64,000 bases of DNA. Source: a virus. Lineage: Duplodnaviria; Heunggongvirae; Uroviricota; Caudoviricetes. Each line of letters begins with the position of its first letter. Within the stretch, counting starts at the first letter, position 1. The DNA lies in IMG/VR virus record IMGVR_UViG_3300037257_000073. One strand, written 5' to 3'. Shown one piece after another: positions 19,841-64,000 of the stretch. The translations under genes and the position numbers were made by a program. Below the pieces are notes generated by a model. It was not told where the DNA came from. It worked only from the letters and a program-made list of their open reading frames with translations, and did not search any database.

Positions 19841-19843
19841 ATT

Positions 19844-20062: not shown

Positions 20063-20083
20063 AATTAATTTATCAATATTTTG

Positions 20084-23012: not shown

Positions 23013-23061
23013 AATGTTAGTATAAAAATTACACTGGGAAATTAATCCCAGTGTAATTTAG

Positions 23062-24939: not shown

Positions 24940-25067
24940 TGTTTAAATATGATCGTTAATGTTTTTAATGAATGTACCTAATACAATTATTACAACGATA
25001 CAAATACCTGTAAAAATTATACCTTCTTGTAAATTCATTGTAGTAATTGCGTTAAAGTACGTTTCCA

Positions 25068-28172: not shown

Positions 28173-28579
<407 letters not shown>

Positions 28580-37749: not shown

Positions 37750-37879
37750 TTCTTTTTATCATTTTGTGTTTAACCTACACGAATTGTGTAACGCACTAAG
37801 CTTAATAACTTTATACTCCCTTAGTGGAGTTAAAACGAGGATGCTATAGAATCGTGATCCCATAGCATCCCTATTCTAT

Positions 37880-42701: not shown

Positions 42702-42787
42702 TATGGATAAAAGGATTTGAACCTCCGACCTCCGGCTAATGTTTTTGTCTTGCTGCCGACGCTCTAACCAGGCTGAGCTATATCCAA
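42702..42787 (-). other. aberrant tRNA-like element with an 18-nt anticodon loop
   Basis: normal D-arm GCTC/GAGC and T-arm GGAGG-TTCAAAT-CCTTT; stem TCGGC/GCCGG encloses AGCAAGACAAAAACATTA. Confidence 0.4.
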
Positions 42788-47030: not shown

Positions 47031-47106
47031 TTTATGTTTTGTAAATGTTTTTGTTAAATAATTGAGGGATTTAACAATGTAAATCCCTCATTTTCTTTAT
47101 CGAAAA

Positions 47107-47517
47107 TCAACCACCGAAACCGTGACCACCACCGAAGCTATGACCTGATGATCCAAATCCACCTGAGCGAGATGATGAACCAGTACTATGTGAACCACTG
47201 AACATTGATGAACGAGTTGGTGCTGCAGTACGGAAAGCCGGTACAGATGACGGACGAGTAATTACATGATTTGCAGAATTACGATAAGTTCCAGAAGAAG
47301 GATAATAATGGGTTACACCTGAAGGACGACCGTTCATAGATGAATAAATCATCCAATAACCAGCGCTATTCCATACAGAGCGATTACCACTTTCATCATA
47401 GTATTCTTGCCCCGCTGTTGGTGACATAGGATACCCTGAATTTCTTCTACAAGAAGTTGCGCTTCCTGCTACCGCTAAAGCTACTAAAGCGGCAAAAATT
47501 GCATGCGTTTTTTTCAT
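47107..47517 (-). CDS. lipoprotein with a Gly/Ser-rich tail
   Basis: signal plus lipobox ..AGSATSC. Confidence 0.45.
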   Translation of the reverse strand: MKKTHAIFAALVALAVAGSATSCRRNSGYPMSPTAGQEYYDESGNRSVWNSAGYWMIYSSMNGRPSGVTHYYPSSGTYRNSANHVITRPSSVPAFRTAAPTRSSMFSGSHSTGSSSRSGGFGSSGHSFGGGHGFGG

Positions 47518-47548
47518 AAAAACTTTATTTAATTAAACTTAGAATTTT

Positions 47549-49955: not shown

Positions 49956-50039
49956 GTGCTACTAATACTATAAACAGAAAAGAGTAAACAGATTTCTTTT
50001 TAAATTTTGTCATGATTAATTAGTTTTAAAAGTAAAACG

Positions 50040-50100
50040 GGGTGAAGATTTTATTGCCATTGTTATTTAATTCATTCAATGCATGGACTTATATCTTCAC
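50040..50100 (-). terminator. long hairpin followed by a T-run (candidate terminator)
   Basis: GGGGTGAAGAT...ATCTTCACCCC 11-bp stem, then GTTTTACTTTT on the minus strand. Confidence 0.35.
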
Positions 50101-50362
50101 CCCTCAATAGTTTAATAAACAACCTACGCTTAGGTTGAGTGAACTTCAAAGCTACCAACTTTTTTATATTCAAATAATGTCTTTACTCTTAAAGACCAAT
50201 TTCTGAACTTTTTAGCACCCTTTTCATTAGCTACATACTTTATCAGTGTACTGCTTATGAAGTTAGGGTCTTGCTGAGAACTTCCAATAGTTTAATAGTT
50301 GCATATCTCATACAGCAACATCTATTCTTTATATTACTATAAAGTTTCTAATCAGGATTTAG

Positions 50363-50773
50363 TTATTTATATCGAGGTAAATCTTGTTTAATTTTACTAT
50401 ATTCATTTCCTCCAATCATTAATCCATTTTTGTAAGCATGAATTTTATTTTCAGAATCAGTACACCATTCAAGATTTACTAATGAATTATTTAATTTATT
50501 TCCATCTATATGATTTACTTGTAAATTTTCAAAGATTGGTCTAAATGTTAACATTACTATTCTATGAACATGTAATGTTTTTATTCCATTTCTATTTTCA
50601 GCAGTAAATCTTAAATATCCAAATTTATTAGGAGATAATTTTAATATTTTCCCTTTTAATTTTCTTCCAATTTTAGATATTCTATTTAAACTTCTTATTC
50701 TTCCTAAATTAGAAACTTGATATATTTCTTCATATTCAGGAATGTCTTTTCAGATTTCTTCTATTTCTTGCAT
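50363..50773 (-). CDS. HNH homing endonuclease (NUMOD4-type N-terminus) with an in-frame TGA at 50750-50752
   Basis: MQEIEEI-TGA-KDIPEYEEIYQVSNLGRIRS; the TGA lies where the Trp of the conserved WKDIPGYEGLYQVSNLGRVRS motif sits; HNH VNHIDGNKLNNSLVNLEW. Confidence 0.6.
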
Positions 50774-50980
50774 AATTATTATTTCAGGAGGTATCCTGTA
50801 TGTTTTATTTAAATGTATAAGCAGTATCCTTGTGCAAAGGGCTGGTGATATACATCGAGAATATATTAACGACATGCCTTATGGCGGAATCGAATATACT
50901 ATCTCATATAGCTTCATACGCTATACTACCTATTTATACACTGTATGAACGAGTATTTATCAGGATTTTTTGTTGTATTT

Positions 50981-51439
50981 TTAAACTAATTCGCTAATTT
51001 TAGCGATCCGGGCTTCATACTTAGCGATTTTTTCTTGACGATTTTTCAATTCTTCGTCATAAGCTTCTTGTTTAGCTTTCATGGTTTCTTTCAAAGCTGT
51101 AATATCATCTTCTTTCGATTTGATATTATTCCAATAAATATCGGAAAATGCTTTGATCGCATCATTCGAACTGATTTCATCCGGCTTAATAGCAAGATAA
51201 GCTTCTTCCAATGCTTCTTCAGCATCTTCTAAAGCATCGGCATGTTTGTCGGTAATTAGCGCGAATTGAGTTTTGGCAGATGACATGTTTTGTTCAACTG
51301 CTTTGATTTTGTCGCGGAACATTTTGATTTGTTTATCAAAGAACTTGTCAACACGACCACTGTCGTCTAACTTCAAAAATGCCATTACTTTGGCTACTAC
51401 TTTTTTCAATACTGGAGCTGATTCTTGTTGTTCACTCAT
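50981..51439 (-). CDS. coiled-coil protein
   Basis: ORF. Confidence 0.4.
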   Translation of the reverse strand: MSEQQESAPVLKKVVAKVMAFLKLDDSGRVDKFFDKQIKMFRDKIKAVEQNMSSAKTQFALITDKHADALEDAEEALEEAYLAIKPDEISSNDAIKAFSDIYWNNIKSKEDDITALKETMKAKQEAYDEELKNRQEKIAKYEARIAKISELV

Positions 51440-51489
51440 AACTTTAATTTTTAAAAATTTAATTGATTTATTTTAATTATTTTTATTTG

Positions 51490-54147
51490 TTAATCTTCTG
51501 AAAGATAAATAAAATCGATTTCATCATCAAAATTCTTTGATGCTATAACAGAATGTTCTGATGCAAATTTATAAGGAATATTCAATAATTTATTCATTTC
51601 ATTGTGGATTAAATTACCAATCTCTTCAGATGTAGCTTTACGAACGCAACTATTTTTAAGCATGTGATCTAAAGACCAACCACCATCACCAGCTTCAATA
51701 TGACAATCGAAACCGTCTATTTTAATTCTAGTAATTTTTGCTGTAAATGGATATGATACTTTAGTAAGTAGATTTTTACGATTACAACGACTTGACCACA
51801 ATTTAGGTTCTCTAGTAATTGTAATATAATCACCAACAGTATAACCTTCATATAATTTTGATTTAGGTTCAGTTCGTGAAATATGATCATTAATAATCTT
51901 ATTAACAACTTCCATATCAGCTAAATGCGGAGTATCCCAATAAGTATGTGCTGAATCTTTTTTCCATACTCCACGATTAATACATTCATCATATTCAAAA
52001 TGATCTGTATGAACCTTAAAACATTTACGAAAATTCTTAGCATTTCCACTAGCATCTTGCGAATACCATTTACTTACTTCGAATTTTGATGGTGTTTCAG
52101 ATTTTGGTTGAGTATATATCTTACAATACAATTCAGAATAATCACGTTTTACTGTTTCAAATGGAACTCGTTCACATACAGTTATATCTTTTAAATAAAT
52201 AAATCCACCGTTCTCAAGACATTTTTTATTACAACAATCATAATAAATTATTGTATCTATTCTTTCTTTTTCTAATTTTGCATCAGTAAATAGAAAGATA
52301 TAACTATACTTTGATAAAGTTACCCTATAAAATTCATTATGTTGAAAATTCAAATTAGGTGATGTACTTTCTGGTTTATAATCCTTTGGTAACACTTCAA
52401 AATCAGATGAAGTAGAATTGTTTGTTGTATAAGTCCAACCTTTTTCAATTTGATAAGAAACAAGTGAAAATTGATCAAGAATTTTAATAATATCACCTTT
52501 TTTTAATGATGTACTTTGTGGATGATCCACAGTTGCTCTTAAATATCGACCGGTTAAATCGTCTTCTGTTGACATAGGTTCTTCAAATTGAGTTTTTGCA
52601 AATGCTTCAGCTTCAGATTTAGTAGCAAACCATTTAGCTTCACTAGCTTTAGATAAATTACAATAATCAGTTCCATTATAAGGAAGTGATACTTTAACAG
52701 TTACTGGACCATTATCTCTTATTATTTTATCAATAGTTCCTTTAGGATGTCCACCATAATCTTTTAAAAGCACAACATAAGTGCCAACAGACCATTTTTC
52801 AGGTTGAGTTTCTTTAACAATTTCTGCCCAAGTATTTTTATCAAAGTCAAATAATGTAACTTTTTTGTCACCATCTGTTATAACTCTTTTATTTTCTTTA
52901 AAAAATGCAGGAGTTTTTAAAACAGTATATTTATCATTTGAAACCACAGGAGACATAACAATAGTACCAATAGGATAACGACGAATTGCTTCGTCTAAAA
53001 CTTCTTGAGTATCACGTTCATTCCAATCTTTTTTCGCTAATTCAACTATTTCAGCCCATTTACCACAAAGAAATACATGACATTGTCTAGCTTCATCACA
53101 TACATTATTTCTTGGATCAATTGTTAATTTAGATCCTAATGTATATATTGATCCAGTTGGTTTATTTCTGTATTTAGTTCCAATAGGATACCTTTTATTA
53201 GCTTCAGCAAGAAGTTCTTCTTTAGAAACTTTAGTCCAATCCTTTTCTGTATTAGTTGAAGTTTCTTTCAAAACATATTGTTTGAATTGAGTAAAAGTTA
53301 TTTCTTCATATTCACTAAGCTTATCAGTATTTTTTGACAAACTATTAAACTTACCAGGACTTATACATAACCAATAATTTTGTACATTACTGTTAGTCCA
53401 CCCTTTTGATTTAAATAATTCATTAGCATAAGGAATAAGAAGTTTACCTTCAGCTTCAGAAGTAGCTATAACACGCCATTTTAATGGTAATGTGAATTCT
53501 TTAGGTTTAAATACCCATTTTTTAAACTGATCCATTGTGAGTTCAGGAACTTCTAAATGATTTATATTATTCCAAGCACCATCTTCAAATAAATAACCGG
53601 CAGTTCCTCTATATTCATCATCATAACGAGATGTTTTTTTTCGCCATTCACTAATCAATTCAAAATCAGGCATAAGTTTATTAACAGCAATACACCATTT
53701 TTTAGGTAATGAAGTTAATTCAGAATTCCATAAATCATAAAGAATTTGAGCTCTTTCTTTAGGATTACTTCCTTTTAATTTTAAATAAACTTCTTCATAT
53801 GGACAAGTTGCACCTAATGAAATATGATTTTCTAATCCGTATAAAGAAAATGATCTTTCTTTGGTTTCTTTAAGCCACCTTTCTAATAAATCATCAGAAA
53901 CAAATGGATCATAACCTAAAAGTTCTTGAATAGTTATTTCTGTTTTATTATTACTATTATGTCTTGAATAAAATTCTTTTTCTCTAGTATTAACTATATA
54001 AGGCCATGTTCCTCCACTAAATTGACGATATAAAGTATCTTTAGGAACAGAAGTATTCCATCCTTGACCTATTAATTTATCATATACTTTTTCAAATATT
54101 TCAAAAGTAATAGACGGATTATATTTTAAATATTTATTCTTTAACAT
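51490..54147 (-). CDS. giant multi-repeat protein (885 aa), paralog of 37880-40033
   Basis: shared motifs GKWAEIV and KWFATKSEAEAFAKTQ; every Trp is TGG. Confidence 0.5.
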   Translation of the reverse strand: MLKNKYLKYNPSITFEIFEKVYDKLIGQGWNTSVPKDTLYRQFSGGTWPYIVNTREKEFYSRHNSNNKTEITIQELLGYDPFVSDDLLERWLKETKERSFSLYGLENHISLGATCPYEEVYLKLKGSNPKERAQILYDLWNSELTSLPKKWCIAVNKLMPDFELISEWRKKTSRYDDEYRGTAGYLFEDGAWNNINHLEVPELTMDQFKKWVFKPKEFTLPLKWRVIATSEAEGKLLIPYANELFKSKGWTNSNVQNYWLCISPGKFNSLSKNTDKLSEYEEITFTQFKQYVLKETSTNTEKDWTKVSKEELLAEANKRYPIGTKYRNKPTGSIYTLGSKLTIDPRNNVCDEARQCHVFLCGKWAEIVELAKKDWNERDTQEVLDEAIRRYPIGTIVMSPVVSNDKYTVLKTPAFFKENKRVITDGDKKVTLFDFDKNTWAEIVKETQPEKWSVGTYVVLLKDYGGHPKGTIDKIIRDNGPVTVKVSLPYNGTDYCNLSKASEAKWFATKSEAEAFAKTQFEEPMSTEDDLTGRYLRATVDHPQSTSLKKGDIIKILDQFSLVSYQIEKGWTYTTNNSTSSDFEVLPKDYKPESTSPNLNFQHNEFYRVTLSKYSYIFLFTDAKLEKERIDTIIYYDCCNKKCLENGGFIYLKDITVCERVPFETVKRDYSELYCKIYTQPKSETPSKFEVSKWYSQDASGNAKNFRKCFKVHTDHFEYDECINRGVWKKDSAHTYWDTPHLADMEVVNKIINDHISRTEPKSKLYEGYTVGDYITITREPKLWSSRCNRKNLLTKVSYPFTAKITRIKIDGFDCHIEAGDGGWSLDHMLKNSCVRKATSEEIGNLIHNEMNKLLNIPYKFASEHSVIASKNFDDEIDFIYLSED

Positions 54148-54386
54148 GTCTTTTTAGATTTAATTAATAACTCTGGTACATAATACCGTTGAATACACGC
54201 ATGAAATTGATTTCTACTATTAGATACTCGAGCAAGATCAGCTTCATTACAATTAAATTGCAACATAACATAATCAGGCAAAAGTTCTAAGTTCTGTAAC
54301 TGACGACACACTATTTGGGATAACGGAGCAACAGCTTCGTCAGTCCAAATAGCATTAGTGTCATTAAATGTTATGAGTTTTATCAT
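54141..54386 (-). CDS. hypothetical protein
   Basis: ORF. Confidence 0.35.
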   Translation of the reverse strand: MIKLITFNDTNAIWTDEAVAPLSQIVCRQLQNLELLPDYVMLQFNCNEADLARVSNSRNQFHACIQRYYVPELLIKSKKTC

Positions 54387-54388
54387 AT

Positions 54389-54805
54389 TTAAAAATTATC
54401 GTACCACCATTTTTTGGTGAACACATGACTACCACAAATTAACCACAATAAAGTTATTCCAAATAAAAGTATAGATGATATAATACCACATATATAAGAA
54501 CATTTAAAAATAATTGGAAGTTCTATCTCTTTGGTTTTATTACCAATATATGAATCTTTAAGTTTTATTTTATTAAATTCTTTACGAGGAACATCAATAA
54601 ATTCACCAAAATCATCTTTATATGTAACAAAAATTTGTAAATCATTGTCACCAAGATCCCACATTCCAGTAACAGTACCTTTTTGATGAATAATCGTACC
54701 TTGATAACTTGGATTATAACAAAAATATCCAAATGAAAAACACATAAAAAAGAATATTGCAATAAATATTCCTTGTCTTACGTAATCTAATATTTTAATT
54801 ATCAT
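54389..54805 (-). CDS. membrane protein
   Basis: TM segments. Confidence 0.4.
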   Translation of the reverse strand: MIIKILDYVRQGIFIAIFFFMCFSFGYFCYNPSYQGTIIHQKGTVTGMWDLGDNDLQIFVTYKDDFGEFIDVPRKEFNKIKLKDSYIGNKTKEIELPIIFKCSYICGIISSILLFGITLLWLICGSHVFTKKWWYDNF

Positions 54806-54885
54806 ACTATCTAGATTTAATGATGTTAGTTATCATCACTGCAGCTATCGCTACAATGATGATGATTCCTAAGGATAATTGCATG

Positions 54886-55206
54886 TTACAATTTATTAAT
54901 GAATTTGTAATAAGAATCAAAATTAGAATTACCTCGATCAGGAGACATATATTCACATTCCCAACCAGCTTTGTGATAAAGAGATTCGAAATCTAAATAT
55001 TTTTTATCATATAAATGTCTTTCAAATGATGAACGATTTTCATATTCAGTTTGATCCGGATGATTAAAAGCTTTAGTAATGATTTCTTTCTTTGTAATTG
55101 TAAAAGACCCACCATTATATCTTTCTTCAATCAATTGATTCACTGAATCAATGATATAATCAGGTAAAATACGTTTAACCTGATTTGGTCTAATTGGTTC
55201 AATCAT
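54886..55206 (-). CDS. hypothetical protein
   Basis: ORF. Confidence 0.4.
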   Translation of the reverse strand: MIEPIRPNQVKRILPDYIIDSVNQLIEERYNGGSFTITKKEIITKAFNHPDQTEYENRSSFERHLYDKKYLDFESLYHKAGWECEYMSPDRGNSNFDSYYKFINKL

Positions 55207-55354
55207 TTTACTTGTAAGATATTAAAGTATCAGACTTTGCATTCCATGCTTTACGCATAATTTGCTTTTCATTTTGAGATGAGGTTAATATTTTACCTGC
55301 TTTAACCTTTTTGTGTTTAGTAACCACTTCGGATAATACAATAGTTTTTTCCAT
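55205..55354 (-). CDS. small basic protein (49 aa)
   Basis: ORF MEKTIVLSEVVTKHKK..., sits directly downstream of repeat R1. Confidence 0.3.
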
Positions 55355-55361
55355 TTTTAAT

Positions 55362-55435
55362 TTGTTTTGAGTTTATACATAATGTGTTTCGTCCAGCCTC
55401 TTCAGTAAACTTTTTAGCCTCTTCTGGATGAGGTG
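55362..55435. promoter_or_regulatory. conserved intergenic repeat R1
   Basis: TTTTGAGTTT + variable hairpin + TTTCGTCCAG + CCAG..CTGG hairpin. Confidence 0.45.
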
Positions 55436-55559
55436 AATAAAAACGCAGCGGACGTTATAACCGCTGCGTTTAAATCAAATAATAATACTAATATACTTCA
55501 CATTTCACAATGTTCTGTATAAATCCAATAAAAATTTACAAATACTAACTATGGCTTAA

Positions 55560-56048
55560 TTATTTTAAGAGAATTTTAGCAAATGATGTATCATTCTTCA
55601 TTTTCTCAATGAGTTCTTTAGAAGACATTTTCTTGGCTTCATCAAGTAATTTATTTTGTTGATCGACAACACCTAAGCTTGTTTTAGCATCCGCAGACAT
55701 TGCTTTTAATTCGGATATAACAAATGTACTTAGTTCTTTAGGAATTTGTTTACATGTTGAATCAGTTGTAACATAATTCATAGCAGTTCCACCACCAATG
55801 ATTAACAACGTATCTTTTTTACTTGGTATGAATGCATGAGCAAGTAAACAAATTGAGAATATTGGAATTATCCAACGTAAAGGTTTACTACAACGATCAT
55901 TTAAATCTTCATCACTTTCGATAAATGAAACCAGCTTCAATATAACATTGAGTGCTAAAAGAATTCCGAAGATAATTAATACTCCTAAAAGTACATGTTT
56001 GAAACCATCGACTACTGTGAGCCAATAAAAGAGTTTAATATAATCCAT
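55560..56048 (-). CDS. membrane protein
   Basis: TM segments. Confidence 0.4.
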   Translation of the reverse strand: MDYIKLFYWLTVVDGFKHVLLGVLIIFGILLALNVILKLVSFIESDEDLNDRCSKPLRWIIPIFSICLLAHAFIPSKKDTLLIIGGGTAMNYVTTDSTCKQIPKELSTFVISELKAMSADAKTSLGVVDQQNKLLDEAKKMSSKELIEKMKNDTSFAKILLK

Positions 56049-56055
56049 TTTGTTT

Positions 56056-56364
56056 TTATTTATTTAATAATTTATTCATATATAAATCAAAATTTTCTTT
56101 ACATGAAGTGAGAACTCCAACTTGATATGGTAATTCATTAGAAATATGAATATTATAATTTTTATCTTCTATTTTTAATAGTTCAGAATTTATAAATTCA
56201 GCAATACCTTTTGGAAGCCAAGCAGATGCTCTAATATGAGGTTTATCTTTAAATAAAACTTCACCTACAATTTGATCACTTTCAGGTACATTTGGATTTT
56301 GTGATTCATATACTCTAATTAATATATCACATTCATAACTTTTATTTAATGTAATTTTATTCAT
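56056..56364 (-). CDS. hypothetical protein
   Basis: ORF. Confidence 0.4.
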   Translation of the reverse strand: MNKITLNKSYECDILIRVYESQNPNVPESDQIVGEVLFKDKPHIRASAWLPKGIAEFINSELLKIEDKNYNIHISNELPYQVGVLTSCKENFDLYMNKLLNK

Positions 56365-56513
56365 ATTTTAAGTTTTGAAATAAGTGTGAAAGGTTGCACC
56401 TTTTATAAGAATTACCAACTGTAGCGCGTACACCTAATGTACCTATCTTACACACTAATTAGATTAAAAGAGTTTCCTCCCCATATTTCTATGGTTTGGA
56501 AACTCGAAAGAGT

Positions 56514-56708
56514 TTACTTTAAATAAAGACCGGTTAACATAGCAAATACAAACATTACTTCACAAAAATGAAATAATCCTATAAATATTACGAAAATCTC
56601 GAATTCTTTAAGTACGACACGATGTAACCAATTAAATAAATGGGTTATTATTGTATGAGCGATAACAATCAACAATACTCCAAATGCGGGTTCGAATGTG
56701 ATATGCAT
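56514..56708 (-). CDS. small membrane protein
   Basis: hydrophobic. Confidence 0.3.
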   Translation of the reverse strand: MHITFEPAFGVLLIVIAHTIITHLFNWLHRVVLKEFEIFVIFIGLFHFCEVMFVFAMLTGLYLK

Positions 56709-56784
56709 TATTTAAATAGTGTTAAGATAAATAATCCAACTGACACACACATTATTACAATAGCAATAGCTTTAAATAGTTTCA

Positions 56785-56961
56785 TTACTTACAAGTTTTA
56801 GTACGATAAATTGCACATGTTTTACCTAACATATCAAAGTTTTCTTCGGATGTAGCAAGCTCTCTTCTTTGATAAGCTGCTTGTCTTGGAGTTAAACCTG
56901 ATATTATTTCTACTTTTACATTGTTACCTGTTATGGCGATGATTGATTTAGTTTTTGACAT
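56785..56961 (-). CDS. small protein (58 aa)
   Basis: ORF trimmed to MSKTKSII..., immediately downstream of R2. Confidence 0.35.
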   Translation of the reverse strand: MSKTKSIIAITGNNVKVEIISGLTPRQAAYQRRELATSEENFDMLGKTCAIYRTKTCK

Positions 56962-56971
56962 AATCTTATTT

Positions 56972-57046
56972 GTTTTTGAGTTTGATATGTTTAAACATAT
57001 TTCGTCCAGTCTCATCAGAAACTATTTTATACTCTACTGGTTGAGT
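56972..57046. promoter_or_regulatory. conserved intergenic repeat R2
   Basis: TTTTGAGTTTG + palindrome ATATGTTTAAACATAT + TTTCGTCCAG + hairpin CCAGT..ACTGG. Confidence 0.45.
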
Positions 57047-58036
57047 TAATAAAAAAGAGAGTACACACTATATGTCCAAATGCGACGATGTGTACTCCCT
57101 TAGTGTTTGTTATCAAAATTAATATGATAACCATTGTTTACTTCGCGGTACATCACCGATAAAATCGGTGAATCTAACCGGGAAGCATTCTTTCGTAATA
57201 AAGAGCTTCACCCTTTTGCTCCCATAGCCAGTTTCAGGACGATATTACGTTGGCTTGTTTTTGACACCAGCAATTAGCACGGCATCGGTTTTAGTATACC
57301 TATCTTTTATTAATTTGTCTTCAAGGATTGACAGAATGGATGCTATTTGTACATATAGCCGTTATACCTTACACTCGGAAGTTCCACACTTTCATCGGAG
57401 GATTGCGCACAGGTTTTCATTATACTTATTTGCAGTTAGTATTATACTGTTTAAAGGCATCAAACCACCATACTGAATCTCTTCTTGATTAGTTATTCAG
57501 ATATGCTTCTTATATAAGAGATTATATTATTTATAACGTTATTATATAGAGAATATACATATCCAACCGTTTATCTGATGAAAGTTGCTTGATGCTAAGA
57601 GTTTAAAGTATATTTACAATAATTGCAGCTAATAAAAATCCAGCTGCGGCAGCATATAAATGCGACATAATATGATTTTCTTTATCAAAACATATTAATC
57701 CCATAAATATATCAAATGCTAAACATAGACTGAGTATAATTACCATTAGCTTATGTATTTAAACATTAATATTCCACAATCAATAAGTAAAGAAAGCATT
57801 ACATATCCCATTCGTGATTCTTCTTGCCATTTGATAATATTGAATTGTAGTCCAATAAATGAACCTAACAAGTAAAAGATAATCCATGGTGCAATGTATA
57901 ATAGAGTTTTTTCAGTTTTAGTCATGTTTTTTGATTTTACATTCTATTGATATAAACATTGCACACAATTCTACAAATAAATAGAAGATTAAGAACGGTG
58001 ATAAACAAATTACTATTGCTTGAGTTTTAGTTAACA

Positions 58037-58330
58037 TTATAGATCTTCATTTTTAAATTTGGTGATGAAATTATCTAACCATTTAAATCGGATATTAAAG
58101 CGAACTCTTTTTATGAGTTTATCGCATAACATACAGATAAAAACAATTAATAATAATCCAATCATAAATATCACTATTAATGTATTTATTCCAGGAATAA
58201 ACCACATAAAATCACATTCAGCTTCATATTTACTAAATATATCTAAATACTTCGGAGATGCAATTCTATATAAGACACTACACAGAACAATGGATAATAA
58301 ATATCCAACAATTAATAAGAATAGTACCAT
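58037..58330 (-). CDS. small membrane protein
   Basis: hydrophobic. Confidence 0.3.
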   Translation of the reverse strand: MVLFLLIVGYLLSIVLCSVLYRIASPKYLDIFSKYEAECDFMWFIPGINTLIVIFMIGLLLIVFICMLCDKLIKRVRFNIRFKWLDNFITKFKNEDL

Positions 58331-58502
58331 GATTATTGTAATGGAATGTGAAACTTAATACACAACATAAGTACAATCCCACACATTATAAATCCACACG
58401 CAAAACCTCCAAGTAATACACCTGTAAGATCTTTTTCAATATAATATTTTCTTGTTAGAAATATATCGAAACATAATAAAAGTAATAATAATATTATCAT
58501 GA

Positions 58503-58775
58503 TTATTTGATTTTAAATTTATCAATTGGATACTCGTACGATGTTATATCATCATCATACACATAAACCTTGATTTTATCCCGAGATTTAATGTGTGTGA
58601 TGTAATATGTGTAAACCAATTTATGTTTTGGTTTAGTTATTGATTCAACTTGTGTAGCAATTGTGGGTTTTGTAGCTTGATGCATATGCCCACTTCTTGC
58701 TTCACAAGATGTTAATACTCGTAAAAGAATAATAACCAAAACTATTACAATAATATTAACAATAATTTTAATCAT
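58503..58775 (-). CDS. small membrane-anchored protein
   Basis: N-terminal TM. Confidence 0.3.
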   Translation of the reverse strand: MIKIIVNIIVIVLVIILLRVLTSCEARSGHMHQATKPTIATQVESITKPKHKLVYTYYITHIKSRDKIKVYVYDDDITSYEYPIDKFKIK

Positions 58776-59044
58776 TATTCTTTAGGTCTAATTGAGTTAA
58801 CACTAATACTATCGAATCCAACAAACGTTTGTTCTTTAAGTATTTGTACAGCTTCAATTGGAGTACGAGCACTAATGAATGTAGAACGTTTTAGAAACTT
58901 ACCAGAAAGATATCCTTTGTAAGTTATTGTGTAAGTTTTTGATAATACTGGAGCATGTCTTCTTGATTGAGAATTACATGCAGTAAAAGAAACAATTAAT
59001 ACTATTGCTACAACAATATTAATAATAAAGATTTTTAATTTCAT
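58775..59044 (-). CDS. small membrane-anchored protein
   Basis: N-terminal TM. Confidence 0.3.
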   Translation of the reverse strand: MKLKIFIINIVVAIVLIVSFTACNSQSRRHAPVLSKTYTITYKGYLSGKFLKRSTFISARTPIEAVQILKEQTFVGFDSISVNSIRPKE

Positions 59045-59045
59045 T

Positions 59046-59267
59046 TTAAACTGATTTTTCTAAATGAATAGCAATGTTAACAATTAATAATAGTATTATA
59101 ATACCATATAATATACATATCTTTGGTAATTTAAAGTATGTAAATACATCAACTATAAGAGCTACTAAAATTGCAACCATTACCACTATTAAAATGATAA
59201 CGATTGTAATTAATATTATGTTTAGCATTTGATTAATTTTTATGAATATTAGATGCAATATGATCAA
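59046..59267 (-). CDS. small membrane protein
   Basis: hydrophobic. Confidence 0.3.
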   Translation of the reverse strand: MIILHLIFIKINQMLNIILITIVIILIVVMVAILVALIVDVFTYFKLPKICILYGIIILLLIVNIAIHLEKSV

Positions 59268-59306
59268 ATAAAAATATTGCCATTATTATTAAACCTATTG
59301 GTCAAA

Positions 59307-59444
59307 TTAATGATGTTGTAAAAATGCTCCGATATTTTGACCGTTATTTAAATACATACTACCAGGAAAATTATATTCTAATACAAGTAATAATATTGGA
59401 CATAATATTAATCCAATAATATAAATAATGATTAATGTTATCAT
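59307..59444 (-). CDS. small membrane peptide (45 aa)
   Basis: MITLIIIYIIGLILCPILLLVL..., downstream of R3. Confidence 0.3.
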   Translation of the reverse strand: MITLIIIYIIGLILCPILLLVLEYNFPGSMYLNNGQNIGAFLQHH

Positions 59445-59454
59445 AATAAATAAG

Positions 59455-59540
59455 TTTTTGAGTTTGACGGGAGTGATGAGCTCCCCGTTTCGTCCTAGTC
59501 TCTTCAGAAACTGATGTTATACTCTCCTAGGCTGAGTCAT
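59455..59540. promoter_or_regulatory. conserved intergenic repeat R3
   Basis: TTTTGAGTTTG + hairpin ACGGGAG..CTCCCCGT + TTTCGTCCTAG + hairpin CCTAG..CTAGG. Confidence 0.45.
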
Positions 59541-59811
59541 ATTGTTCTTACATCACTGTAATACTAAATATAGTTGGGATAGAAATAATGATAATTAGAA
59601 AGAAATACAGACTGATGAGGAATGTATATTGTAAAAAAGACTCATGATAGGCTCCGGACTATTATGCACCGTATGCAACACCGTCGGACGACGGTTAATC
59701 AAATCATAAGTCTTTTATGAAAGTAAACATAATTGAACCCGGGATATCTGTACCGTACTAAAAACCATCAGATCTAATGATTTTTTCAATTATGTTTATG
59801 AGAGAGTATTG

Positions 59812-60039
59812 CTACTTTTTATGTTTATCTATAGTATTTATCATTTGATAAAACTTATAATAGATTATACCTATTGATGCAACAAATAATACAAATGGCC
59901 AAAATAATGACATCATTCCATAACCCAATGCATAATCAGCAGGATCATCACATTCTAAAACATTTGGAAAGAACTTTGTGAAAAGCATAATAATGAATGG
60001 GAATAACGGAATTCCAATGAGATAAATTGTTATTATCAT
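59812..60039 (-). CDS. small membrane protein
   Basis: hydrophobic. Confidence 0.3.
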   Translation of the reverse strand: MIITIYLIGIPLFPFIIMLFTKFFPNVLECDDPADYALGYGMMSLFWPFVLFVASIGIIYYKFYQMINTIDKHKK

Positions 60040-60103
60040 AATTTAATAAGTTTAATAAATCTCCTAATCACCTTACGGCTTTCGGAGACTCAAAAGTGTG
60101 TGA

Positions 60104-60433
60104 TTAAATACCTAATTCTTTTAGTTTACGATAAACTGTTCGTTCACTTAATCCAAGTTTTTCAGCAATTACTTTATTTGTATAATAACCTAGACTCTTA
60201 AGAATTATAATATTCTCAGATTCAGTTCTAACACCTGTAATTTCAAGCTTATTTATTGAACTAATTATTGTAAAACTTGAAAGATCAACAGCATTTGTAA
60301 TAGCTAATAACTCTTTTACAGTTATATTAGATATAATCTCTAAAGTTTGTGATTTGAAATCAACCTTAATTTTTTCCATTATTACCTGGTTTATAAGATT
60401 TATAAACTTTGTGTAATGTGTGACGTGCATCAC
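60104..60433 (-). CDS. HTH DNA-binding protein (sigma region-4 / Fis-like HTH)
   Basis: C-terminal VIAEKLGLSERTVYRKLKELGI. Confidence 0.45.
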   Translation of the reverse strand: MMHVTHYTKFINLINQVIMEKIKVDFKSQTLEIISNITVKELLAITNAVDLSSFTIISSINKLEITGVRTESENIIILKSLGYYTNKVIAEKLGLSERTVYRKLKELGI

Positions 60434-60474
60434 TAGATGATGCTAAATATACAGTTTTATTCATTGTGATATGT

Positions 60475-60570
60475 GTTTTGAGTTTTACGAGAGTTTTAGA
60501 GTTTCCTCTTATTCTCTCGTTTCGTCTAGATCTCATCGGAAACCAATGTTATACTCTCTCTAGCTGAGTT
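60475..60570. promoter_or_regulatory. conserved intergenic repeat R4
   Basis: TTTTGAGTTTT + hairpin ACGAGAG..CTCTCGT + TTTCGTCTAG + hairpin CTAGA..TCTAG. Confidence 0.45.
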
Positions 60571-60638
60571 GTATGTTATCATTTTACAATGACTAATACC
60601 AACGTTCAAAATTACTTAAATGAATAATATATATTGTT

Positions 60639-60932
60639 TTATTTTTTAGAATTATGATTATAAACTTGTTGCATTTTCATAGCTTTATCAAGTTCTTTTT
60701 GAATAATTCCATAATATATTGGTTGAGTTGTAGTAAATATATATTTACCTCGTGATATATTTGTGATTAATTCACAAGATTTGAGAAGATTAAATATACT
60801 TGACGAATAAGGACATTTAGTTTCTTTTAAAATTTTTGTTAATTCAATTTTACTAAAAGAATCAATTTCTTTTGATATGATATTATTAACACATGATATA
60901 ACTAATTTAGCATTTTCTTCAGATGTTTTCAT
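60639..60932 (-). CDS. hypothetical protein
   Basis: ORF trimmed to MKTSEEN..., 8 nt downstream of partial repeat R5 (60940-60966). Confidence 0.35.
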   Translation of the reverse strand: MKTSEENAKLVISCVNNIISKEIDSFSKIELTKILKETKCPYSSSIFNLLKSCELITNISRGKYIFTTTQPIYYGIIQKELDKAMKMQQVYNHNSKK

Positions 60933-61190
60933 TATGATGTTTTTGAGTTTGAGCATCGCGTAGGACCTAAACTTATACCAATTGTATAAATCTATTGTAA
61001 CTGAATTGTTACAATATGCACTCTGTTAATAATATTACATAATCAATCCAAATATGTTTTGTCATATGTAGGGTTTTCAATGTAAAATTTGGTTGGAATG
61101 ATTATTGGGATTATTTTTGGAGTGGTTGAGAGTCGTTGTCAGTGCTCGTTTACTCTCAATCAACCCAAATATTTTTTTAAATAATCATCT

Positions 61191-61460
61191 CTATCTTAAT
61201 ACCACATTAGTTATGATATCATTTCGTGTTTGGATATAGCATTCTATGGGGAAAAATGGCTCATATTCTTCTAATCTCATCTTGTATGGATATACTTTAT
61301 GTTCATGTCCAAAGACATCTTCGAACTTATTGCATGATATCCAAGTGCCTTTCATACATTTCCATGTGCTCACAATTATACTCAATATTTGGTAATACAT
61401 AATTATACTAAGTTGAATACTATAATATATAATTACGTAGTAAAAAAAAGAGAAGTACAA
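61191..61460 (-). CDS. small membrane protein
   Basis: ORF. Confidence 0.3.
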   Translation of the reverse strand: MYFSFFYYVIIYYSIQLSIIMYYQILSIIVSTWKCMKGTWISCNKFEDVFGHEHKVYPYKMRLEEYEPFFPIECYIQTRNDIITNVVLR

Positions 61461-61492
61461 AAATGTACTTCTCTTATAACATTGTTAAAATG

Positions 61493-61990
61493 TTATTTCT
61501 TTTTGGCTGGTTTAGCCGTATCAACTGTAACATCCTCAGTATCAACTGATTCGTTAACAAGTTCAAAGATAGGCATATTTTTTGCAACCTCTTTGATTTC
61601 TTTACCCTCGGCGATTTCGTCAGCAGTACGGAAAGCATTAACAGTTACAGTTTCGTGGTCTACAACTTTGATAGTTTTACCTAACAAGTCCTTAACACTC
61701 AAATTTAAACCGTTGTCAATCACGGCACGTTTTGATTGTTCGCCACTTGTGAAATAAATTCCCATTAACGTATTAGCACCAACCACGGCAACTGAACCGT
61801 TAACAAGTGCAGAGATACCGAGCCACGGTTTTCCACCCTGTGAAATAGCTTCCATTTCAACAACGGCGTCCAATTCAATTACAGTATCTTTCGCATAAGT
61901 ATCGCCACCAATTGAGGCAAAACGAGCAGGAATTTCTGAGGTTGTTAAAATACGTTTACAACCTGGAATTTGTCTTTTTTCAATATTCAT
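61493..61990 (-). CDS. hypothetical protein
   Basis: 165 aa ORF. Confidence 0.4.
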   Translation of the reverse strand: MNIEKRQIPGCKRILTTSEIPARFASIGGDTYAKDTVIELDAVVEMEAISQGGKPWLGISALVNGSVAVVGANTLMGIYFTSGEQSKRAVIDNGLNLSVKDLLGKTIKVVDHETVTVNAFRTADEIAEGKEIKEVAKNMPIFELVNESVDTEDVTVDTAKPAKKK

Positions 61991-62199
61991 AATGATAGAG
62001 TTTTGTTTGTTAGTAGTTTACTTTCCATTCAAGACCTGCTGGGGGTAGAAGAGATGACTGTCCACCCACTCGATTCATAAAAATAAAAAAATTTTTTCAA
62101 AAAAAATTATTCAGAACTTCCTAAAAATTATTTTCAATACTTTTTATATCTTCTACCTTTTAATAAAATTAATTTTACTACGCGCGCGTTCGTATATAT

Positions 62200-62460
62200 A
62201 GTAAACTTTTGCGTTTGATACAACAAATTTTGCGTATCAATATGTAAAGTTTTACGGACAGCCACATTAAGTATAGAATTATTAAGTATATATTAAGTAT
62301 ATGGAAACCTTGTAATTCACTGTGTCACAATAACTTAACCGTTTTCATACAAACTCGAGCGTATCATTTGAAAATTCCGACGTATCATTTGAGATTTTTT
62401 GCGTATCATTTGGAGTTATCTTATTGACTATTAACCGATTACAAATGATATGCTCGAAGT
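62200..62460. promoter_or_regulatory. iteron-like direct repeats at the strand switch (candidate origin or operator)
   Basis: GTATCATTTG three times in direct orientation at ~62358, 62381, 62404 (23-bp spacing) plus an inverted copy at ~62445; related TTTTGCGT(A/T)T boxes at 62209 and 62231; AT-rich tract and CGCGCGCG upstream. Confidence 0.45.
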
Positions 62461-62530
62461 AATTGTATATCAGTGACTTAACATTTTTTAACTATGTGTA
62501 TAGTATTTTTGTCACACAAATTTCTTATCT

Positions 62531-63325
62531 TTGTGTATCAAATTTAATACGATGAGTGAAGAAAAAGAAAAGAAAACAAATAGACACGTCCAAGTGCCAA
62601 ACTCTGTCGCTAACAATGTAGACAGTGATAAGAAATCTAAATACAAAAAGCACTATACTGATGTCTTAGTTTATGGTTTTCTTCGAAAAAATATGGACGG
62701 AAAAACAATGGTGGCATTTATATCCTTAAAAATTATAGCAGACTCGATTGACATGTCGGTCGGTGGTGTATCAGCTGCAATTAAAAGATTAGAAGAAGCA
62801 GGAGATGTAACAAAAATTAAAATGGAAGGTGGACGAAATCAAAATGGATATAAATTTAATCCACATTCCGACAAGTTTGAAATGTATGATTTAAGTTTCC
62901 TCGAAAATAAAGAACTTAATAGTTTACAGAAATCATATTATATGATTATGCAACCTTATTTATATATTGATAAAGAAACTGGAATAGGTAAAACTACTTA
63001 TAGTGATATTGAAATTTCAGAAATAACAGGTATATCTAAAACAGTAGCACAAGAACGTAGACGAGAATTAGAATCACTTGGTTTTATAAACAGAAGAACA
63101 ACTACAGATATGGAAGGTAACTCTTGTGAAGCACTTGAATTTAATCTTCCTAAGTTTGGACAATTTGTTATGTGTAAAATTAAAGAACACGATGTTGCAA
63201 TAACTGATTTAAATATAAAAGTAAATCAATTAGAACAAGAACTAAATCATCTAAGAAAACAAATGAAACTTAAAGGAGAATATACTCCTTACGAAGAAAA
63301 CACTAATAACGAAATAACATTATAA
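62531..63325 (+). CDS. HTH DNA-binding protein, candidate replication initiator or regulator
   Basis: two HTH-like segments (ISLKIIADSIDMSVGGVSAAIKRLEEAG; ISEITGISKTVAQERRRELESLGFI); directly downstream of the iterons; no Trp. Confidence 0.4.
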   Translation: MCIKFNTMSEEKEKKTNRHVQVPNSVANNVDSDKKSKYKKHYTDVLVYGFLRKNMDGKTMVAFISLKIIADSIDMSVGGVSAAIKRLEEAGDVTKIKMEGGRNQNGYKFNPHSDKFEMYDLSFLENKELNSLQKSYYMIMQPYLYIDKETGIGKTTYSDIEISEITGISKTVAQERRRELESLGFINRRTTTDMEGNSCEALEFNLPKFGQFVMCKIKEHDVAITDLNIKVNQLEQELNHLRKQMKLKGEYTPYEENTNNEITL

Positions 63326-63636
63326 TGTCTGGAAAAGAATTAACAATAGAAATAATAAATAAATTAAATAATATTCAAACTAAATATAATCCAACTAATT
63401 ATAAATTTGAATTGAAAGAATATAATGATACAGATAAAAAGCAAATATATGCAAAAATAGTTCATTATAATCACGATGAAGAAATCATTGTTGTAAATGC
63501 ATTAATATATTATAAAGAGTATGATGATACTGTACATAAACTTTTATATGAGGAATTAAATTCAAGTTTATTTAATAAATTATTATTTACAAATATATTT
63601 AAAAATACTATAGCAACTATAGATTTATTAAAATAA
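63325..63636 (+). CDS. hypothetical protein
   Basis: 103 aa ORF; no Trp. Confidence 0.35.
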   Translation: MSGKELTIEIINKLNNIQTKYNPTNYKFELKEYNDTDKKQIYAKIVHYNHDEEIIVVNALIYYKEYDDTVHKLLYEELNSSLFNKLLFTNIFKNTIATIDLLK

Positions 63637-64000
63637 ATGGAAGTAATACAACACTTCGTTCGTAATGACGACCATGATGAATTATACATTATGGAAATTG
63701 AAGGGAAAGCTTATGCTAGGATGTATTGATTCCATGATGATCCAAAATCAGTTTACTTAAACTCTTTAAGTGTTGAGAATAACGAAAGAGAACAAGGACT
63801 TGGAACTAAAATGCAGGAACTAAGAGAGAAAATAGGAATAGAACTCGGAGCTACACAATCCTTTTTATGAGTTAAACGGGATAGTTGAATGTATGAATGA
63901 TATACCCGAAGAGGTTATAACGATTTCTCAGATTACACAGATGATGATAGTATGATATGAATGATTAAAATGTTAAATGATAACAATACTAAATACAAAG
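63637..64000 (+). CDS. GNAT-family N-acetyltransferase with five in-frame TGA (partial at window end)
   Basis: frame open from ATG 63637 to the window end if TGA at 63727, 63868, 63886, 63898 and 63958 code Trp; GNAT motifs REQGLGTK and EWYTRRGYNDF; all Trp are TGA, none TGG. Confidence 0.5.

Follow-up and report, generated by a model that had tools for sequence, protein, structure and literature searches.

Several described systems resemble the repeats reported here. In hammerhead ribozymes the 2'-OH of H17 attacks its own 3' phosphate, with G12 as the general base and the 2'-OH of G8 as the general acid, and the products are an upstream RNA with a 2',3'-cyclic phosphate and a downstream RNA with a 5'-OH. 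The closest relative is the phage-associated pseudoknot hammerhead (RAGATH-1 hammerhead, Rfam RF03152), which was discovered by the Breaker group, is catalytically active, cleaves fast and has a solved crystal structure (Zhan et al. 2024, PMC11300833). An unannotated example occurs in the crAss-like phage cr131_1 as well. The classical type I, II and III hammerheads (RF00163, RF02276 and RF00008) share core, three-way junction logic, chemistry and products with the copies described below, but in the latter helix II has shrunk to a single base pair, a pseudoknot together with an additional 5' hairpin substitutes for it, and helices I and II make no loop-loop contact. The pistol ribozyme (RF02679) likewise cleaves just 5' of the 3' strand of its outer helix, but it has other core nucleotides and its general acid is a metal-bound water instead of the G8 2'-OH; our four copies have the hammerhead core.

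Two further groups are comparable in layout. RiboJ, attributed to Lou and colleagues in 2012, is reportedly an engineered ribozyme insulator. Hammerheads in the 5'-UTRs of fungal and plant RNA viruses are required for translation (10.1101/2024.05.16.594327). As would be the case here, a self-cleaving ribozyme lies in both between upstream sequence and the translation start, where variable 5' context is removed and a defined short leader is left; those cases are synthetic or eukaryotic-viral, whereas ours is a DNA phage and the role is inferred from layout. In T4-type phages, promoter-early stem-loop cassettes are said to flank small early genes (an observation credited to Arbiol, Comeau and Krisch in 2010). 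There too, short repeated modules with a stem-loop bound small novel open reading frames (ORFs) in a hyperplastic region, with gene swaps and indels at the repeats. In contrast, the module in our phage is a predicted catalytic RNA with its leader and not a promoter, and a role in recombination is only putative.

We analyzed a 64,000-nucleotide (64 kb) stretch of an uncultivated phage, hereafter the window. All repeat sequences quoted in an earlier note were found where it placed them, yet the correct reading of the repeat is on the minus (gene) strand. Judged from sequence, the four full repeats (c1 to c4) are pseudoknot-type hammerhead ribozymes of RF03152 on that strand; a fifth proposed copy at 60940-60966 (c5) shares only a 12-nt leader with them. 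The class is already described and the window copies are further members; only the common leader and the terminator-adjacent layout are possibly new. In an Rfam cmscan, 2 of the 4 copies (c2 and c3) passed the curated RF03152 threshold of 56.3 bits, c1 and c4 scored below it, and helix III of c4 was misaligned (Table 1). None of the classical hammerhead models scored above the RF03152 matches here. Our own covariance model, applied to the whole window without filters, returned 4 matches (E = 1e-7 to 1e-16), with the next best match at only E = 0.1.

Table 1. Ribozymes, leaders and associated elements in the 64-kb window
Feature	Position	Strand	Score	Details
c1 ribozyme	55371..55434	-	own model 51.7 bits, E = 3.3e-9; Rfam 50.0 bits (55371-55434)	helix IV CCUC/GAGG; linker CUAAAAA; helix I GUUUA/UAAAC; core CUGAAGA; pseudoknot CCAG/CUGG; helix III 3 bp; H17 = A at 55376; predicted cleavage 55376/55375
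c1 leader after predicted cleavage	55355..55375	-		UAAACUCAAAACAAAUUAAAA, 21 nt; ATG at 55354, 48-aa ORF
Terminator-like hairpin	55436..55471	-	MFE -20.1 kcal/mol, z = -5.9	11 bp, GC-rich, followed by UUUUUAUU; ends 1-2 nt before c1
c2 ribozyme	56979..57047	-	own model 85.4 bits, E = 1.6e-16; Rfam 67.6 bits	helix IV ACUC/GAGU; linker AUAAAAU; helix I AGUUU/AAACU; core CUGAUGA; pseudoknot CCAGU/ACUGG; helix III AUAUGU/ACAUAU; H17 = C at 56984; predicted cleavage 56984/56983
c2 leader after predicted cleavage	56962..56983	-		AAACUCAAAAACAAAUAAGAUU, 22 nt; ATG at 56961, 58-aa ORF
Terminator-like hairpin	57049..57101	-	MFE -20.5 kcal/mol, z = -5.6	14 bp, followed by UUUUUUAUU; ends 1-2 nt before c2
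c3 ribozyme	59461..59538	-	own model 65.7 bits, E = 2.9e-12; Rfam 59.4 bits	core CUGAAGA; pseudoknot CCUAG/CUAGG; helix III ACGGGGAG/CUCCCGU; H17 = C at 59466; predicted cleavage 59466/59465
c3 leader after predicted cleavage	59445..59465	-		AAACUCAAAAACUUAUUUAUU, 21 nt; ATG at 59444, 45-aa membrane ORF
c4 ribozyme	60481..60570	-	own model 45.0 bits, E = 9.1e-8 (helix III correct); Rfam 36.2 bits (60500-60570)	core CCGAUGA (U4 to C); pseudoknot CUAGA/UCUAG; helix III long, ACGAGAG...CUCUCGU, with inner GAG-GAAA-CUC hairpin; H17 = A at 60486; predicted cleavage 60486/60485
c4 leader after predicted cleavage	60465..60485	-		AAACUCAAAACACAUAUCACA, 21 nt; ATG at 60464, 32-aa ORF
c5 element	60933..61000	-		same leader, AAACUCAAAAAC, at 60941-60952, 18 nt before ATG at 60932
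Pistol ribozyme	37769..37830	-	Rfam RF02679 41.6 bits (threshold 34.5)	predicted G/U cleavage leaves UUAAACACAAAA...; 120-aa ORF starts at 37749
Hairpin and U-run	37831-37878		MFE -24.4 kcal/mol, z = -7.3	directly 5' of pistol ribozyme

From 5' to 3' the element consists of helix IV (a 4-bp hairpin), a linker of the AUAAAAU type, the 5' strand of helix I, the core C-U-G-A-N-G-A, G10.1 and C11.1 enclosing a 5-7-nt loop that forms with the helix IV loop the pseudoknot replacing helix II, G-A-A, the helix III hairpin closed by A15.1-U16.1, H17 (C or A) and the 3' strand of helix I, AAACU. Together, this strand and the conserved leader make up TTTTGAGTTT. The two-hairpin model proposed earlier does not survive: its first hairpin is indeed helix III, read on the minus strand, but the stem of the second is the pseudoknot in the place of helix II, and helix IV, the AUA4 linker, the 5' strand of helix I and the core CUGAnGA all fall within what was taken for a conserved loop. 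Compared with RF03152, connectivity and conserved nucleotides are the same and nothing differs in kind. Every core position is present in c1-c3; the deviations are U4C in c4 and the CUAAAAA linker and 3-bp helix III in c1, of which a variant in L211 has a longer helix III through an A-to-G change. Helix I is frozen in this lineage as (A/G)GUUU/AAACU, running into the conserved leader (c4 has GGUUU/AAACU, G-U pair included), and varies freely with covariation in other phages.

The proposed selection on base pairing was confirmed in the wider family. Among 87 aligned members from other phage and metagenome contigs, which are related so that the statistics are not from independent sequences, helix IV was paired in 99%, helix III in 93% and helix I in 86%. 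The pseudoknot, although absent from the search model, was paired in 97% with both-sided changes at 5/5 pairs. The compensatory series CCAG/CUGG, CCUAG/CUAGG and CUAGA/UCUAG noticed earlier in the window is real. Overall, 17 of 20 pairs changed on both sides and every helix covaried; the covariation score was matched by 0 of 500 shuffles, and slid controls were paired in 22-38%. The repeat is real and under structural selection, and compensatory changes between copies and lineages around an intact core indicate that this selection acts on the folded RNA. The helices also contain G-U pairs, which fit the sense (minus-strand) transcript only. An action as RNA, within the 5' leaders of the genes that follow, is supported.

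All four ribozymes are intergenic and oriented like the genes, with the predicted cleavage site 21-22 nt before an ATG. The copies themselves end 7-10 nt from the start codon and not 7-40 nt as first described, and only 1 of the 5 immediately downstream genes, which had been called often membrane, encodes an obvious membrane protein. These genes show no homology to one another; the one behind c3 opens a run of about 9 small ORFs, most of them for membrane proteins, and the 32-aa ORF behind c4 overlaps the gene of a 91-aa helix-turn-helix (HTH) protein. Among distinct family members, 23 of 47 lie 20-31 nt before an ATG-ORF. The 10-mer AAACTCAAAA occurs exactly 5 times in the 64 kb window, always on the minus strand and within 55365-60950, and the pattern ACGAAA-N10-36-AAACTCAAAAM-N9-17-ATG was found 4 times against 0.00 expected from 100 shuffles; one-mismatch leader variants were about as frequent in the window as expected (25 found, 22 expected). 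AAACUCAAAA is identical at 5 sites in the window, 4 in the relative L231 and 2 in L240, while helix III, the pseudoknot and the remaining leader vary. Two other phages with paired ribozymes have their own leader motif common to each pair. Of 93 ORFs, just 2 are preceded by a Shine-Dalgarno-like 4-mer. A is most frequent from -14 to -10, the interval in which the A-run of the leader falls. Conservation and position suggest that the leader may serve as a standard start context.

Taken together, the repeats are very probably cis-acting, self-cleaving pseudoknot hammerheads, co-transcribed with the minus-strand genes. After cleavage the downstream mRNAs would start with (U)AAACUCAAAA(A)C, carrying a 5'-OH and a 21-22-nt leader before AUG that is A-rich, G-poor and predicted to be unstructured, and the upstream RNA would keep a compact structured 3' end. 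The ribozymes could thereby act as junction modules that separate and insulate small-gene cassettes, each freeing its downstream cistron from whatever RNA precedes it, be it read-through from a terminator, structured non-coding RNA or a leader with a 5' triphosphate. All cassettes would then share one short leader, which would suit initiation independent of Shine-Dalgarno sites. From the layout, we infer that separating and insulating cassettes and defining their leaders is the likely role, in a host that makes no use of Shine-Dalgarno sequences and is probably a member of Bacteroidota.

The earlier note had left the choice between promoter/operator and RNA open, and the evidence now favors an RNA in the 5' leader, as the four full copies match a self-cleaving class of solved structure. 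DNA-level promoter or operator repeats, with the paired segments as protein-binding palindromes for a phage or host protein, have hardly any credence left, even though HTH proteins are encoded nearby (60104-60379 and 62531-63325). The paired segments are not palindromes but distant complementary strands of a three-way junction and pseudoknot, enclosing an exact hammerhead core and tolerating G-U pairs on one strand only. Promoter scans of the window stayed at chance level, both for sigma-70 (67 found, 65 expected) and for the paired Bacteroidetes -33/-7 pattern suggested for comparison (6 found, 4.5 expected, none at a copy). Two Bacteroidota-type -7 boxes (TAnnTTTG), one 37 nt 5' of c4 and the other immediately upstream of the c2 hairpin, speak for such a function but occur at near-chance frequency. 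The candidate for it is c5 alone, where our covariance model found no ribozyme. Upstream of its leader lie an invariant GCTC, the motif GTTTAGGTC and the inverted repeat TTATAC-N5-GTATAA. L231 and L240 have kept the element, and its inverted repeat shows 4 compensatory pairs; this repeat and GTTTAGGTC persist across three diverged lineages. c5 thus may be a promoter/operator-like head of the leftward gene block, at which the same leader would be supplied by a promoter-like element and not by a ribozyme.

Comparison with L231 revealed mosaic breakpoints at or beside ribozyme and leader edges: a different gene stands between the c5 leader and c4, the c3 leader is directly followed by an insertion of two genes, and an indel lies at the 5' edge of c2. 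Such breakpoints, the minimal helix III of c1 and the non-consensus core of c4 would fit decayed or inactive relics, kept as recombination junctions for cassette shuffling with cleavage irrelevant. We consider this unlikely, since helices and pseudoknot change by compensatory substitutions around an intact core and a recombination role is compatible with an active ribozyme. The CCGAUGA core itself is kept in the diverged L231, with a remodelled helix III, and occurs independently in the unrelated L181; a literature search for activity data on U4C found none.

Terminator-like hairpins directly adjoin c1 and c2, and the same folding check found none at c3 or c4. In the family, the 50 nt upstream formed more stable folds than control windows, with a median of -9.9 kcal/mol against -5.4 kcal/mol (P = 3e-8, from related sequences). 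A 5' cleavage product of terminator hairpin and ribozyme could persist as a small RNA, and a compact, stable fold immediately 5' of start codons might also work uncleaved, as a structured leader, as an element that binds protein or controls translation, or as a small RNA. That the element functions without cleavage is nonetheless very improbable: all catalytic-core nucleotides are conserved, which a mere scaffold would not need, and the class was shown to cleave fast (PMC11300833). Moreover, the same phage has at an equivalent position a pistol ribozyme, with another core and the same cleavage topology, which suggests that cleavage is the selected property. The pistol copy follows the genomic layout of the hammerheads, with a hairpin and U-run first, then the ribozyme, an A-rich leader and the ATG, and its predicted cleavage would leave a comparable 5' end, UUAAACACAAAA.

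The repeat described in the earlier note as a two-hairpin element is real and was rightly flagged as structured, and the sequence strings and coordinates quoted for it were correct on checking, but it belongs to a known ribozyme class. Along the minus strand, on which nearly all window genes are encoded, the unit consists of a hairpin, AUAAAAU, 5 nt, CUGAnGAG, 5-6 nt, ACGAAA, a variable hairpin, U-H, AAACUCAAAA(A)C, 9-11 nt and AUG. Exactly five occurrences of the 10-mer AAACTCAAAA were counted in the 64 kb, always at the repeat locus and on the minus strand, and its one-mismatch variants are not enriched in the window (25 vs 22 expected); the signal is one of five sites and not a general motif. 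Searching for core end, gap, leader and ATG in combination gave four matches in the window and none in 100 shuffles.

Rfam assigned the four full copies (c1-c4) to RF03152 only, the pseudoknot (PK) hammerhead ribozyme. Copies c2 and c3 score above the gathering threshold of 56.3 bits and c1 and c4 below it, the lowest score (c4) being due to misalignment of a long helix III. All four were significant with our own covariance model, R1, built from 12 family members and run on the window with filters off. R1 matched exactly these four (next best E = 0.1) and found no ribozyme at the fifth site (c5), previously described as a partial copy. At the level of sequence, c1-c4 are established as PK hammerheads placed in 5' leaders and under selection for the catalytic fold. 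Assignment to the pistol class (RF02679) was rejected for these copies, since they carry the hammerhead core and the sole true pistol match lies elsewhere in the window. Coordinates, scores and predicted cleavage sites are collected in the table.

Ribozymes, leaders and other features located in the window
Feature	Coordinates	Strand	Rfam match	R1 E-value	Predicted cleavage	Leader (nt)	Remarks
c1, PK hammerhead	55371-55434	minus	RF03152, 50.0 bits	3.3e-9	55376/55375	21	48-aa gene follows
c2, PK hammerhead	56979-57047	minus	RF03152, 67.6 bits	1.6e-16	56984/56983	22	58-aa gene follows
c3, PK hammerhead	59461-59538	minus	RF03152, 59.4 bits	2.9e-12	59466/59465	21	45-aa gene follows
c4, PK hammerhead	60481-60570 (Rfam: 60500-60570)	minus	RF03152, 36.2 bits	9.1e-8	60486/60485	21	32-aa gene follows
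c5, leader copy	60941-60952	minus					AAACUCAAAAAC, 18 nt before ATG
Element upstream of c5	60953-61000	minus					
Pistol ribozyme	37769-37830 (with hairpin: 37769-37878)	minus	RF02679, 41.6 bits		G|U (37774/37773)		120-aa ORF start at 37749, 24 nt downstream
Mini-ORF near pistol	start at 37762	minus					6 codons
Mechanical ORF	56785-57015	minus					start most likely 56961
Mechanical ORF	60366-60536	minus					start most likely 60464
Gene-free stretch	57096-57602	minus	RAGATH-7, 19.6 bits, E = 0.5 (non-significant)				507 nt, between small ORF and c2 hairpin; z = -2.3
Gene-free stretch	59590-59811	minus					long hairpins, z = -2.7
Gene-free stretch	56365-56513	minus					long hairpins, z = -3.0
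Two small genes	59046-59444						directly after c3 leader
tRNA genes and tmRNA	7930-20155, 28173-28579, 42702-42787	minus					
HNH endonuclease ORF	17733-18314						among tRNA genes
Auxiliary gene regions	520-2536, 11733-12677, 22330-26302, 45924-48685						

The crystal structure and kinetics of the PK hammerhead were published in 2024 (PMC11300833). In this class a pseudoknot takes the place of helix II, joining the helix II loop to that of an additional 5' hairpin (helix IV), and an AUA4 linker sits in the helix IV minor groove as a minor-groove triplex (PMC11300833). Under R1, helices I and III are formed in all four copies. Helix II is reduced to G10.1-C11.1, which closes the loop that pairs with the helix IV loop. 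The pseudoknot reads CCAG/CUGG in c1 and c2, CCUAG/CUAGG in c3 and CUAGA/UCUAG in c4; helix IV is CCUC/GAGG in c1 and ACUC/GAGU in c2-c4, and helix III differs in every copy. The A-rich linker of AUA4 type is AUAAAAU in c2, AUAACAUC in c3, AUAACAUU in c4 and CUAAAAA in c1. Of the two hairpins originally proposed, the first is indeed a hairpin and corresponds to helix III. The stem of the second is the pseudoknot, and what had been taken for its conserved loop is the helix IV 3' strand, the linker, the helix I 5' strand and the catalytic core. Likewise, the conserved strings TTTCGTC(C/T)AG and TTTTGAGTTT are the complements of the 3' pseudoknot strand plus AC-GAAA and of the helix I 3' strand (AAACU) plus CAAAA, respectively. 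Two other pairings were rejected: a local helix II hairpin, whose loop would have only 2-3 nt, and pairing of the U-run with the AUAAAAU linker, which is inconsistent in register and lacks the U-run in many members.

Core identity was scored at C3-U4-G5-A6-N7-G8-A9, at G12-A13-A14, at the A15.1-U16.1 pair and at H17 (not G). Copies c2 (CUGAUGA, H17 = C) and c3 (CUGAAGA, H17 = C) are canonical in sequence. Copy c1 has CUGAAGA...GAA, the A15.1-U16.1 pair and H17 = A; its helix III has 3 bp, extended to 4 bp by an A-to-G change in a near-identical contig (L211). Copy c4 (CCGAUGA, H17 = A) agrees at every tested position except U4, which is C. The same U4C variant recurs with intact helices at 4253-4326 (minus) of L231, a diverged relative that keeps CCGAUGA with a remodelled helix III, and at 9820-9897 of the unrelated contig L181, which argues that it is tolerated. 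The recurring CCGAUGA core poses a cheap biochemical question on core tolerance in a fast pseudoknot scaffold.

We next turn to the wider family. Scanning IMG/VR for the pattern turned up 68 loci of the same architecture, and a metagenome scan added relatives of the window phage. As helix III could not be aligned across members by MAFFT, the model was made from the better alignment (A2) and the family was then re-aligned with it, yielding 87 matches, 77 of them distinct. The named structure including the pseudoknot was 93.8% paired vs 66.6% in shuffles, with both-sided changes at 17 of 20 pairs; the observed score was reached in 0 of 500 shuffles, and slid partners were 22-38% paired. Helix IV was paired in 99% of cells (3/4 pairs covarying) and the pseudoknot in 97% (5/5). 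Values for helix I (86%, 5/5) and helix III (93%, 4/5) are underestimates of pairing because some rows with a long helix III, c4 included, were misaligned at the 3' end (alignment A4). G10.1-C11.1 is invariant in 77/77 distinct sequences, so that covariation does not apply to it. The pseudoknot was added by hand for this test and the alignment was fitted to the other helices; because it was absent from the search model, its support is independent of the alignment method. The structural selection suspected earlier from base-pair covariation is therefore borne out across the 87 aligned matches, for helices and pseudoknot alike. These compensatory changes argue for a folded RNA, and speak against the copies being inactive relics kept as recombination junctions, a reading that we regard as very improbable, if slightly less so for c1 and c4.

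The helices of the family alignment contain G-U pairs that fit the minus strand alone, and we therefore read the element as part of the sense transcript. This bears on the promoter/operator option that the earlier note had offered, in which c1-c4 would be DNA-level repeats. Such a role is not supported for the four full copies, given their catalytic core, non-palindromic topology and strand-specific G-U pairs and promoter scans at chance level. A sigma-70 scan of the window stayed at chance, and a promoter of this type inside the copies was rejected on that ground. The suggested comparison with the Bacteroidota consensus (-33 TTTG / -7 TAnnTTTG) gave no paired match at any copy and 6 in the window vs 4.5 expected; isolated -7 boxes were located at 60614 and 57121, against a background of 58 per strand.

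Folding of the upstream sequence revealed a hairpin and U-run within 1-2 nt 5' of c1 and c2 (-20 kcal/mol, z about -5.7) and none adjacent to c3 or c4. The pistol ribozyme has the same layout, with a hairpin and U-run directly 5' (z = -7.3). Compared with an intrinsic (Rho-independent) terminator, a GC-rich hairpin with a U-run behind it, all three hairpins (z = -5.6 to -7.3) appear terminator-like; they were overlooked by a terminator consensus scanner because of their loop length. Predicted cleavage of the pistol would leave the 5' end UUAAACACAAAA. A structured leader that does not cleave is an unlikely account of the copies, considering that the core is conserved and that a second ribozyme class occupies the same layout. 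PK hammerhead and pistol share essentially the same secondary structure (PMC11300833); the likeness of their 5' modules was dropped as a novelty, being already published there. Two gene-free stretches, 59590-59811 and 56365-56513, also fold into long hairpins; in the former, a U-run comes after the second hairpin, some 60 nt 5' of c3. Across the family, the 50 nt upstream of 47 members with distinct upstream sequence had a median of -9.9 vs -5.4 kcal/mol in random windows of the same loci (Mann-Whitney P = 3e-8), 28% of members vs 3% of windows reached -15 kcal/mol or lower, and 23 of the 47 lay 20-31 nt before the ATG of an ORF of at least 30 codons; these figures are descriptive, as member sequences are related and controls include coding DNA.

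The genes directly after c1-c4 are mutually unrelated, and PHROGs matches to the genes directly downstream were limited to an HTH regulator and a single family with no assigned function. They are small, as first described, and c3 heads about nine small, mostly membrane ORFs, although "often membrane" overstates the case for the adjoining genes, with a clear membrane protein only at c3. Gene callers had drawn spurious ORFs into the ribozymes: two mechanical ORFs, for instance, extend into them from upstream ATGs and most likely start further downstream.

Across three lineages, AAACUCAAAA is the same at each of 5 + 4 + 2 sites, in contrast to helix III, the pseudoknot and the remaining leader, which vary. 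Elsewhere among phages, the 3' strand of helix I has other sequences and covaries with its partner; the constraint in the window lineage therefore comes from the leader, to which helix I has adapted. A Shine-Dalgarno-like 4-mer precedes only 2 of 93 window ORFs, and the sequence ahead of the ORFs is rich in A and poor in G, with A peaking at -14 to -10, the position of the leader's A-run. Leader and SD-poor starts would fit SD-independent initiation as in Bacteroidota, and we infer a host from this phylum; the PK hammerhead class is also found in a Crassvirales genome. A Shine-Dalgarno or anti-SD function of the leader was rejected (no complementarity, SD-less genome).

At c5, which heads the leftward block of genes near the strand switch, the same leader occurs without a ribozyme. 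Its upstream element is conserved in three diverged lineages (window, L231 and L240), with four compensatory pairs in an inverted repeat (TTATAC/GTATAA vs CTTATC/GATAAG), an invariant GTTTAGGTC and GCTC directly before the leader. This is probably a promoter/operator region, with near-matches only to the Bacteroidota -33/-7 consensus.

The PK hammerhead class cleaves in cis 3' of H17, leaving a 2',3'-cyclic phosphate and a 5'-OH, with G12 as general base and the G8 2'-OH as general acid, and is more than 10 times faster than extended hammerheads (PMC11300833). Reviews call the function of bacterial and phage ribozymes unresolved, the main proposal being processing of polycistronic mRNAs (PMC6765202). 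In the window, cleavage would detach the mRNA of each cassette from upstream RNA and give it a uniform short A-rich leader, while the upstream fragment would keep a structured 3' end. The 5'-OH may also slow 5'-end-dependent mRNA decay, which proceeds through RNase E/J and RppH pathways. Such a role would resemble engineered ribozyme insulators and the 5'-UTR hammerheads on which translation depends in certain RNA viruses. We tentatively propose, as a possible though doubtful reading, that two ribozyme classes of one topology act as interchangeable cistron-start modules giving a common functional leader in the window lineage and, more loosely, in further large phages whose hosts are probably Bacteroidota. 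Placed directly after a terminator-like hairpin, the modules would let every downstream mRNA start with the lineage-specific 5'-OH leader AAAC(U/A)CAAAA, 21-24 nt before AUG; the promoter-like element at the gene-block head would give the same leader, and cleavage would supply it to internal cistrons as a signal for translation, stability or a phage factor. If true, this would assign a concrete role to phage ribozymes. The common leader of this lineage, its fixed AUG spacing, the frequent upstream terminator-like hairpin and the recurrent U4C may be new. Five unannotated ribozymes of self-cleaving classes (four PK hammerheads and one pistol) are hereby placed on the phage with predicted cleavage sites, and the locus is an unusually clean natural layout for studying their role: two classes with nearly the same 5' end, a constant start-codon distance of 21-24 nt, a promoter copy of the leader that lacks a ribozyme and serves as internal control, and relatives with genes swapped between modules.

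Those relatives came from a metagenome scan for hammerhead plus leader (61 loci, of which L211, L231 and L240 were useful); in IMG/VR and GTDB genomes the same pattern yielded only chance coding matches, and the first collection scan, GACGAAA-N-AAACTCAAAA, was too loose (about 119 chance loci). Megablast of 50000-64000 against phage records returned only a 60-nt HNH match, the AAA ATPase search distant matches only, and the neighbouring 885-aa protein no relative by related-locus search in IMG/VR and no tblastn match; by sequence comparison, the phage is without a close cultured relative. Relative to L231, a different gene occupies the interval from the c5 leader to c4 with both flanks kept at 87-89% identity, the two small genes after the c3 leader are present in the window and absent from L231, and L231 has an insertion of about 130 nt at the 5' edge of c2. 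With swaps and indels at their edges, the ribozyme-leader units thus behave like junctions between cassettes. The gene-free stretch 57096-57602 is 96.8% identical in L231 vs 84-87% for neighbouring segments, is moderately structured and may be a non-coding RNA.

Paired ribozymes were seen on two unrelated contigs, L161 (804-1230) and L181 (9820-10240), each with two adjacent PK hammerheads that have in common a phage-specific motif of 9-10 nt directly downstream of helix I: TAAACTAAAA for L161 and AACCAATAA for L181, the latter occurring only at those two places in 11 kb. An IMG/VR subfamily (L140, L143, L158, L171, L177, L178, L183 and L186) has ACGAAA followed by AUAUAUUCC...CUGAAU, a tiny palindromic helix III, and then a conserved terminator, AAUCCACUUGCUUGUGAAAGUAGGUGGAUUUUUU, in place of an ORF. 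Unannotated PK hammerheads also lie just upstream of tRNA genes, in L122 and at 788-841 of crAss-like phage cr131_1 (NC_055902.1, L251), where the adjoining gene encodes tRNA-Gln and not a protein.

The window itself carries about 24 tRNA genes and a tmRNA with tag peptide GNKTISFARTAFMAAA. Its auxiliary genes encode two calcineurin-like phosphoesterases, a methionyl-tRNA formyltransferase-like protein, glutathionylspermidine synthase, an OmpA-domain protein and a Nudix protein. A PNKP-type HAD phosphatase, with no kinase or ligase partner found nearby, adjoins NAMPT and might act on RNA ends.
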